A stretch of 64,000 nucleotides of DNA from Fidelibacterota bacterium UBA2986 (GCA_002346675.1 DEAI01000010.1:28038-92037); one strand, 5' to 3'. Counted from the stretch's first letter, positions 29,495-29,523 are shown. A program made the numbers and translations. Notes: generated by a model not told the origin, from the letters alone.

Positions 29495-29523
29495 TTAGAC
29501 AATTTTAGGTGCCGGATTATTCC
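29495..29523 (-). promoter_or_regulatory. candidate ECF-sigma promoter (GGAATAA-N15-TGTCTAA)
   Basis: Minus strand reads GGAATAATCCGGCACCTAAAATTGTCTAA, about 80 nt upstream of the ATG at 29415. Same element and spacing as at 60374-60402 and 54184-54212. Confidence 0.55.

Follow-up and report, generated by a model that had tools for sequence, protein, structure and literature searches.

An autoregulated ECF sigma factor paired with a FecR-type anti-sigma factor is a textbook principle of bacterial gene regulation, and in the FecI/FecR/FecA systems the anti-sigma factor holds the sigma factor until a receptor senses an extracellular ligand. For the sigmaE (RpoE) factor of E. coli, the promoter consensus reportedly described by Rhodius et al. 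in 2006 is GGAACTT-N16-TCAAA. An abundant lineage of the ocean, the Marinimicrobia (SAR406) are uncultured, and to our knowledge almost nothing is known about how their genes are regulated. In this work we consider a candidate ECF promoter in a 64,000-nucleotide stretch of DNA (hereafter the window) from a member of this lineage, Fidelibacterota bacterium UBA2986, and the genes that it may control.

As with E. coli sigmaE, the system comprises bipartite promoter boxes about 16 nt apart, a copy of these boxes before the sigma factor's own operon, and a predicted regulon of envelope and surface functions. [quoted passage not shown] The gene order of sigma factor, FecR and extended TonB receptor is that of FecI/FecR/FecA and of the ECF/anti-sigma/SusC-like signalling of Bacteroides PULs; liberation of the sigma factor by an extracellular ligand is the logic common to those systems, and we infer that it applies here as well. 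The present system differs from FecI systems in that its sigma factor is not FecI-like and the STN match of its receptor falls below threshold, and in place of uptake functions the predicted targets are secreted C25 and M14 proteins, a pilus cluster and a polyglutamate cluster.

Two further systems invite comparison. In the PorY-PorX-SigP system of Porphyromonas gingivalis, SigP regulates genes for T9SS components under two-component control (PMC4800418). SigP and the sigma factor considered here are alike as ECF sigma factors tied to type IX secretion within the FCB group; they differ in that SigP serves genes of the machine itself, whereas here the predicted targets are cargos and control would be exerted by FecR and a TonB receptor. 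As in the pgsBCA(E) and capBCAD(E) genes of Bacillus, PgsB and PgsC equivalogs are adjacent and overlapping, but a TIGR04332 protein replaces PgsA/CapA, CapD is lacking, a secreted protein, a beta-barrel and a propeller lipoprotein are added in a manner that fits a diderm envelope, and the block is headed by a giant T9SS protein of the C25 family. Cloacimonadota MAGs are on record as carrying polyglutamate genes, without linkage to C25 (PMC8542988), and our literature search, the coverage of which was incomplete, turned up no publication in which a C25 protein is connected with pgs genes. The kind of regulation is ordinary; the gene neighbourhood is unusual.

Results

Architecture of the promoter region

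The features discussed below are collected in Table 1. Read along the minus strand from 29523 to 29495, the element under study (copy 2 of the motif) is GGAATAATCCGGCACCTAAAATTGTCTAA. Its -35 box, GGAATA (29523-29518), is separated by a 16-nt spacer from its -10 box, TGTCTAA (29501-29495), an arrangement that fits the bipartite form of ECF promoters, in which a GGAAC-like -35 element and a GTC- or CGTC-like -10 element lie approximately 16-17 nt apart; the transcription start would fall at about 29487-29491. The original prediction had placed the motif some 80 nt upstream of the ATG of an 1820-aa C25 paralog (here C25a), in a 168-nt intergenic region common to this gene and a hydrolase gene on the plus strand, and both measurements hold, with 79 nt to the ATG (ORF 23953..29415) and a common region at 29416-29583. 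This divergent arrangement of hydrolase and C25a is retained in three of the comparison genomes (G006, G007 and G008). Among orthologous C25a promoters (G000, G003, G006, G007 and G008), both boxes and an AGGA(G) box are kept while the spacer varies, and within the leader conservation is confined to the AGGA(G) box and the ATG. An Rfam scan of the window returned no family match for the leader; its sole match was a tRNA at 744-817.

Table 1. Coordinates of the promoter copies, genes and intergenic features. Entries with a contig prefix lie elsewhere in the genome; all others are window positions.
Feature	Coordinates	Strand	Description
ECF-type promoter, copy 2	29495..29523	-	Two boxes; PWM score 31.4 bits
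C25a 5' leader	29416..29494	-	About 73 nt given the inferred start; Shine-Dalgarno-like AAGGA at 29425-29421
Alpha/beta-hydrolase gene, divergent	29584..31263	+	Shares the intergenic region 29416-29583
C25a, 1820-aa T9SS cargo	23953..29415	-	C25 propeptide, Peptidase_C25, NIDO-like, Por_Secre_tail
C25a-pgsB gap, 62 nt	23891..23952	-	3-bp stem, then T5; sequence poorly conserved
pgsB, poly-gamma-glutamate synthase	22718..23890	-	TIGR04012, 409.7 bits (cut-off 222.7); Mur_ligase_M
pgsC	22282..22725	-	TIGR04011, 127.6 bits (cut-off 96.45); CapC
TIGR04332 poly-gamma-glutamate system protein	21165..22289	-	298 bits (cut-off 100); PgsA/CapA position
Secreted protein, 305-aa ORF	20321..21238	-	No family match; likely start ATG at 21187
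Outer-membrane beta-barrel, 356 aa	19261..20331	-	pLDDT 72, pTM 0.70; signal peptide; C-terminal ..DLFY
Beta-propeller lipoprotein, 412 aa	18018..19256	-	Lipobox LSC; pLDDT 79, pTM 0.79
1305-aa T9SS cargo	14096..18013	-	Last gene of the order-wide conserved block; PF18962 above cut-off
798-aa M14 carboxypeptidase, T9SS tail	11692..14088	-	PF18962 above cut-off; genus-specific addition
839-aa C25-like T9SS cargo	9161..11680	-	FlgD_ig above cut-off, weak PF18962; genus-specific addition
Motif copy 3	54184..54212	-	Upstream of the 1512-aa C25b, head of the type IV pilus cluster
TonB-dependent receptor, N-terminal extension	56074..58725	-	Plug, barrel, CarboxypepD_reg
FecR-like anti-sigma factor	58697..59683	-	FecR PF04773, 69 bits; FecR_C PF16344, 47.9 bits
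ECF sigma factor, 180 aa	59680..60222	-	Sigma70_r2 and r4_2 (PF04542, PF08281, PF07638)
Motif copy 1	60374..60402	-	Upstream of the sigma gene (autoregulation)
PWM match, 18-21 bits	C11:29179-29214		Precedes 1106-aa M14 carboxypeptidase with T9SS tail
PWM match, 18-21 bits	C10:691-726		Precedes 3104-aa PKD-repeat/polyproline-module T9SS giant
PWM match, 18-21 bits	C24:134262-134297		Precedes 266-aa acidic Cys-rich lipoprotein
PWM match, 18-21 bits	C1:61865-61900		Precedes thioredoxin-like (TlpA-like) gene, then DUF6029; thiol-redox cluster

A palindrome, GTCTA-AAAATA-TAGAC, occupies window positions 29530-29545, 6 nt upstream of the -35 box of copy 2. It is present in the C25a-orthologous promoters, where G003 carries CTCTA..CAGAG with the symmetry preserved, and it was found neither at the sigma-gene copy nor at the C25b copy. 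It may serve as the binding site of a second regulator acting as a dimer, or form part of the promoter of the divergent hydrolase gene.

Distribution of the motif

In its loose form (GGAAT-N18-GTCTAA, one mismatch) the motif is by itself not significant, as it has four matches where 1.6 would be expected, a count that 12 of 100 shuffles also attain. Three of the loose matches are intergenic, and these lie upstream of C25a, C25b (54184-54212) and the sigma gene (60374-60402); a match at 20418-20446 was dismissed as chance, since it scores below 12 bits and has no counterpart at the corresponding position in G007, G008 and G009. Five copies of the strict form, GGAATA-N15-TTGTCWAA, are present in the 1.93-Mb genome, and four of these stand upstream of the sigma gene or of a C25 paralog; one of the four, on contig C26, precedes another C25 paralog by 27 nt. 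A strict match at C42:273548, with no downstream gene and less than 12 bits, was likewise attributed to chance. Just outside the window, a variant (GGAATA-N15-ATGTCGAA) precedes a third C25 paralog.

A position weight matrix (PWM) was built from 26 sites taken exclusively from other genomes and then run on this one. It returned eight matches of at least 18 bits, against none in the reversed genome and none in 10 local shuffles. All matches scoring 15 bits or more are intergenic and share the strand of the next gene, and those of at least 16.9 bits with a callable downstream start lie 46-217 nt before it. Part of the motif's conservation is circular, because the training sites were picked with the pattern. 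The two A residues following TGTCn are invariant among the aligned sites, though they lie outside the search pattern.

Among relatives, orthologs of the 180-aa sigma factor share 81-96% identity in eight MAGs of the same genus and 59% in two other families. GGAATA-N16-TGTC is found exactly once, in the sense orientation and upstream, at 10 of 11 sigma-ortholog loci and at 17 of 30 C25-paralog loci of these relatives; the spacing between the boxes is identical in 31 aligned sites, and the spacers themselves differ between paralog groups. Sigma homologs with 42-54% identity from Bacteroidota/Bacteroidales MAGs also bear the box, 50-75 nt before the start at six loci, and the box therefore tracks this sigma lineage across phyla, as expected of an autoregulated ECF promoter. 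ECF sigma factors as a rule control their own genes, which tend to lie together with those of their regulators and targets (PMC7826278). In three genomes of other families (G010, G012 and G019), which have no close sigma ortholog, no motif was found upstream of C25a: nothing motif-like stands there in G019, the GGAATA-N18-TGTCTAG of G010 is 2 nt too long to be counted as a copy, and the GGAATAA...TCGTTTT upstream in G012 and G027 was not counted either. The latter two C25a orthologs share GGAATAA/GGATTAA-N14-TCGTTTT approximately 140 nt before the ATG (L081, about 4000-4030; L040, about 755-785), and this element possibly represents an ECF-type box with a different specificity.

Four copies of the motif in this genome precede paralogous C25 genes, C25a included, as would be seen if the box were a non-functional remnant copied with the 5' ends of duplicated genes. 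The box also stands before the sigma, M14, PKD giant, lipoprotein and thioredoxin-like genes, which are not paralogs of C25, and it is the boxes and their spacing alone that are conserved, spacers and flanks having diverged. Moreover, the group of C25 paralogs of about 2050 aa has lost the -10 box: the -35 half is all that is left in this genome and in the G006 ortholog, and the orthologs in G004, G007 and G008 have no box, so the motif is not merely carried along with every C25 duplicate. A vestigial origin of copy 2 thus appears extremely improbable.

The sigma operon and the probable reader of the box

The 180-aa sigma factor consists of sigma-70 regions 2 and 4 only and matches TIGR02937 with 96.8 bits (cut-off 42.9); its best equivalog matches are to RpoE/SigW/SigM-like models. 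It falls outside the FecI-like clade, scoring 69 bits against a cut-off of 126.4 for TIGR02985, the Bacteroides expansion family. Motif copy 1 lies 148 nt upstream of the sigma ATG, and the gene for the FecR-like protein overlaps the sigma gene by 4 nt. The N-terminus of the neighbouring TonB-dependent receptor gives FecR_C-like (23.5 bits, cut-off 24.4) and STN (18.6 bits, cut-off 28.4) matches, both of them sub-threshold. The receptor, which has an N-terminal extension, is a probable signal transducer.

The sigma leader holds a hairpin of its own (minus strand, about 60340-60370), in which GAAGAA-AGAAAAT-TTCTTC directly follows the -10 box and is itself followed by TGCTTTTT. The hairpin is conserved within the genus, with a compensatory pair in G003 (GAACAA/TTGTTC), and is possibly an attenuator in a leader of about 150 nt.

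Assignment of the 180-aa sigma factor to the box is likely on grounds of proximity and the logic of autoregulation. The box might instead be read by another ECF sigma factor with the same -10 preference, or by a DNA-binding regulator. The only other ECF sigma factor found here, a protein of 175 aa (contig C9:11308-11835), has TTAACC-N16-GTCTAAG upstream of its own gene, and so carries GTCTAA at its putative -10 position; its -35 element is TTAACC, however, not GGAATA. Yet another may exist, because the MAG is 77% complete and relatives carry about three ECF sigma factors. Against a different reader stands the fact that GGAATA...TGTCnAA follows the lineage of the 180-aa sigma factor from genus to genus and beyond the limits of family and phylum, its distance to the ATG varying, and we consider such a reader very unlikely. 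That an ECF-type motif heads the first C25 paralog, as originally predicted, is supported by the PWM, the orthologous promoters and the sigma-linked copies, and it is highly probable that the 180-aa sigma factor, whose gene lies 30 kb away, recognises copy 2 as a promoter.

Possible transcription beyond C25a

It had further been predicted that the 62-nt gap between C25a and pgsB (23891-23952) lacks an obvious terminator, and that the nine genes from pgsB to the end of the 839-aa C25-like gene are closely packed. The terminator scan found none in the gap, which folds no better than its shuffles (z = -0.5). Among the nine genes (22718..23890 to 9161..11680), neighbours either overlap or are separated by no more than 11 nt. 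No terminator-like hairpin was found in the intergenic gaps from 29415 to 6941. From 29488 to 9161 the genes share one strand, short gaps and conserved adjacency, with no intervening terminator. On the minus strand, the first terminator-like intergenic hairpin follows the PhoU gene, at 6715-6699, and as such the genes for an ArsR-type regulator (8755..9102), a Na/Pi cotransporter (7606..8724) and PhoU (6941..7606) belong to the same co-directional string. Because C25a is not followed by a terminator, some of the transcription started by the ECF sigma factor probably continues into pgsB and beyond; where present, this read-through would add inducible expression to that of any basal promoters of the block.

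The strongest competing explanation accepts the promoter as real and confines its effect to C25a, with the transcript ended or processed just after the stop codon and the pgs string served by non-ECF promoters of its own. Most same-genus relatives (G002, G003, G004, G008 and G009) do have a hairpin of 5-8 bp at that place, directly after the C25a stop, which could stop or process the transcript; these hairpins have no T run, and in the present genome what stands there is a 3-bp stem that the scan did not recognise as a terminator. In other families the block works without this sigma factor: G010, G012 and G019 carry it but lack both the motif and any close ortholog of the sigma factor, and so it can be expressed without this regulator. 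A gene string of 20 kb usually has promoters inside it, and the present one very likely does too. TAnnTTTG boxes, the -7 element of housekeeping promoters in Bacteroidetes, occur 19-64 nt before five consecutive internal genes; we did not accept them as evidence of internal promoters, as the box is 1.5-fold enriched with no positional peak upstream of genes here and the host is not a member of the Bacteroidota. A scan for E. coli-type sigma-70 promoters was uninformative (77 sites against 76 expected). The housekeeping promoter motif of the host was not recognised in these scans. Two further points weigh against a transcript confined to C25a: the 62-nt gap is unconserved and has no recognisable promoter, and C25a marks where conservation of the block begins on its 5' side, the gene upstream of it being different in each family.

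Taking these considerations together, we place the monocistronic alternative somewhat short of even odds, and the balance tips slightly towards some read-through from copy 2 into pgsB. A single ECF-dependent transcript of 20 kb is a more doubtful proposition.

The polyglutamate block

The prediction that poly-gamma-glutamate genes and four T9SS cargos lie downstream of the promoter agrees with the profile searches, in which PgsB and PgsC score above their NCBIfam cut-offs and four proteins bear T9SS tails, that of C25a matching PF18962 above cut-off. In the block, the profile search gave no CapA match for a PgsA/CapA, and CapD is not present. The ORF of the 305-aa secreted protein overlaps its neighbour by 74 nt when read from a TTG start, and an internal ATG (MNLNLSYK...) reduces the overlap to about 23 nt. 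This protein, the 356-aa barrel and the 412-aa lipoprotein have no family match and no PDB sequence match. The fold model of the barrel, made from seven-sequence ortholog alignments, finds its best structural matches in the monomeric channels CymA and OmpG and in the BcsC cellulose-export barrel, making it a candidate polymer channel, and the modelled lipoprotein resembles WD40 and designer propellers. The 1305-aa cargo contains many repeats of about 55-60 aa (..W.D.R.....DIYAQ..), with its Pfam match confined to the tail.

Adjacency of a C25 gene of about 1820 codons to pgsB occurs in 15 genomes from four families. The block comprises eight genes, encoding C25a, PgsB, PgsC, the TIGR04332 protein and proteins of about 305, about 356, about 365-412 and about 1000-1370 aa; families f1, f2 and f4 retain it whole, and f11 at least for the most part. 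Orthology of the members was confirmed by comparison with the proteins of G010, to which C25a is 47% identical over its full length, the secreted protein 34% and the 1305-aa cargo 36%. Other genes were seen upstream of pgsB at two loci: an IS3-like transposase fragment directly upstream in G014 (L079, G014:C39, 1120-1461), and in G037 (L080, G037:C2, 2-1435) a protein with a NIDO-like region and a dockerin-like C-terminus and no T9SS cassette.

C25a itself matches PF01364 with 182.7 bits and PF08126 with 53.8 bits, and among PDB sequences it matches gingipain R (E 1.6e-18). By alignment alone, the catalytic Cys is retained (LTCGTG), whereas the catalytic His of gingipain R (..YTGH..) is replaced by Tyr (NYRGY); these sites correspond to window positions 28150-28160 and 28050-28070, within residues of about 419-457. 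At the His position, Tyr, Phe, Trp or Ile stands in all five large C25 paralogs, in the 839-aa C25-like protein and in the G010 ortholog, and the Cys is kept. Because the catalytic His is missing, these C25 proteins may not be conventional proteases. The C-terminal 380 or so residues of C25a (window 23956-25100) form a pre-tail T9SS cassette that is very common in its own genome and in relatives, with at least about 27 proteins per genome among the matches listed (E about 1e-70).

Discussion

The explanation that best accounts for these observations is that copy 2 is an ECF promoter under FecR/receptor signalling, at which transcription of C25a starts and from which part of the transcription probably reads through to pgsB; we assign it a probability of roughly 0.8. 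By analogy with FecI/FecR/FecA, the FecR-like anti-sigma factor would hold the 180-aa sigma factor, and the sensing of a ligand by the adjacent TonB-dependent receptor would release it. The free sigma factor would then transcribe its own operon together with a small regulon of envelope and surface genes, predicted to comprise the four C25 paralogs, the M14 carboxypeptidase, the 3104-aa PKD giant, the lipoprotein and the thiol-redox cluster, and at copy 2 it would initiate transcription approximately 73 nt before C25a.

On the evidence of gene content and fold models, we read the conserved block as a diderm module for the synthesis and export of poly-gamma-glutamate with an attached surface protein. 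A bolder reading, which we regard as unlikely, is that it constitutes an undescribed diderm polyglutamate system of Marinimicrobia, conserved across the order, in which PgsB, PgsC and the TIGR04332 protein would carry out synthesis, the secreted protein, the barrel of 14-16 strands and the propeller lipoprotein would carry out export, and the giant C25-fold T9SS protein, with its Cys kept and its catalytic His missing, would anchor or process the product at the cell surface. In one genus this capsule-like module, a type IV pilus cluster and several secreted peptidases would have come under one surface-signalling ECF sigma factor. If this were true, an extracellular cue would switch the cell to an attached, coated state.

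A sigma factor and promoter defined by sequence as a pair, with about nine predicted targets per genome, amount to a concrete regulon hypothesis for these organisms. The conserved association of C25 with pgs genes is a separate lead, as it points to a way in which a diderm might export poly-gamma-glutamate and retain it. Within the predicted regulon, one extracellular signal would link the C25 and M14 proteins, the type IV pilus, the thiol-redox cluster and, possibly, a polyglutamate coat.
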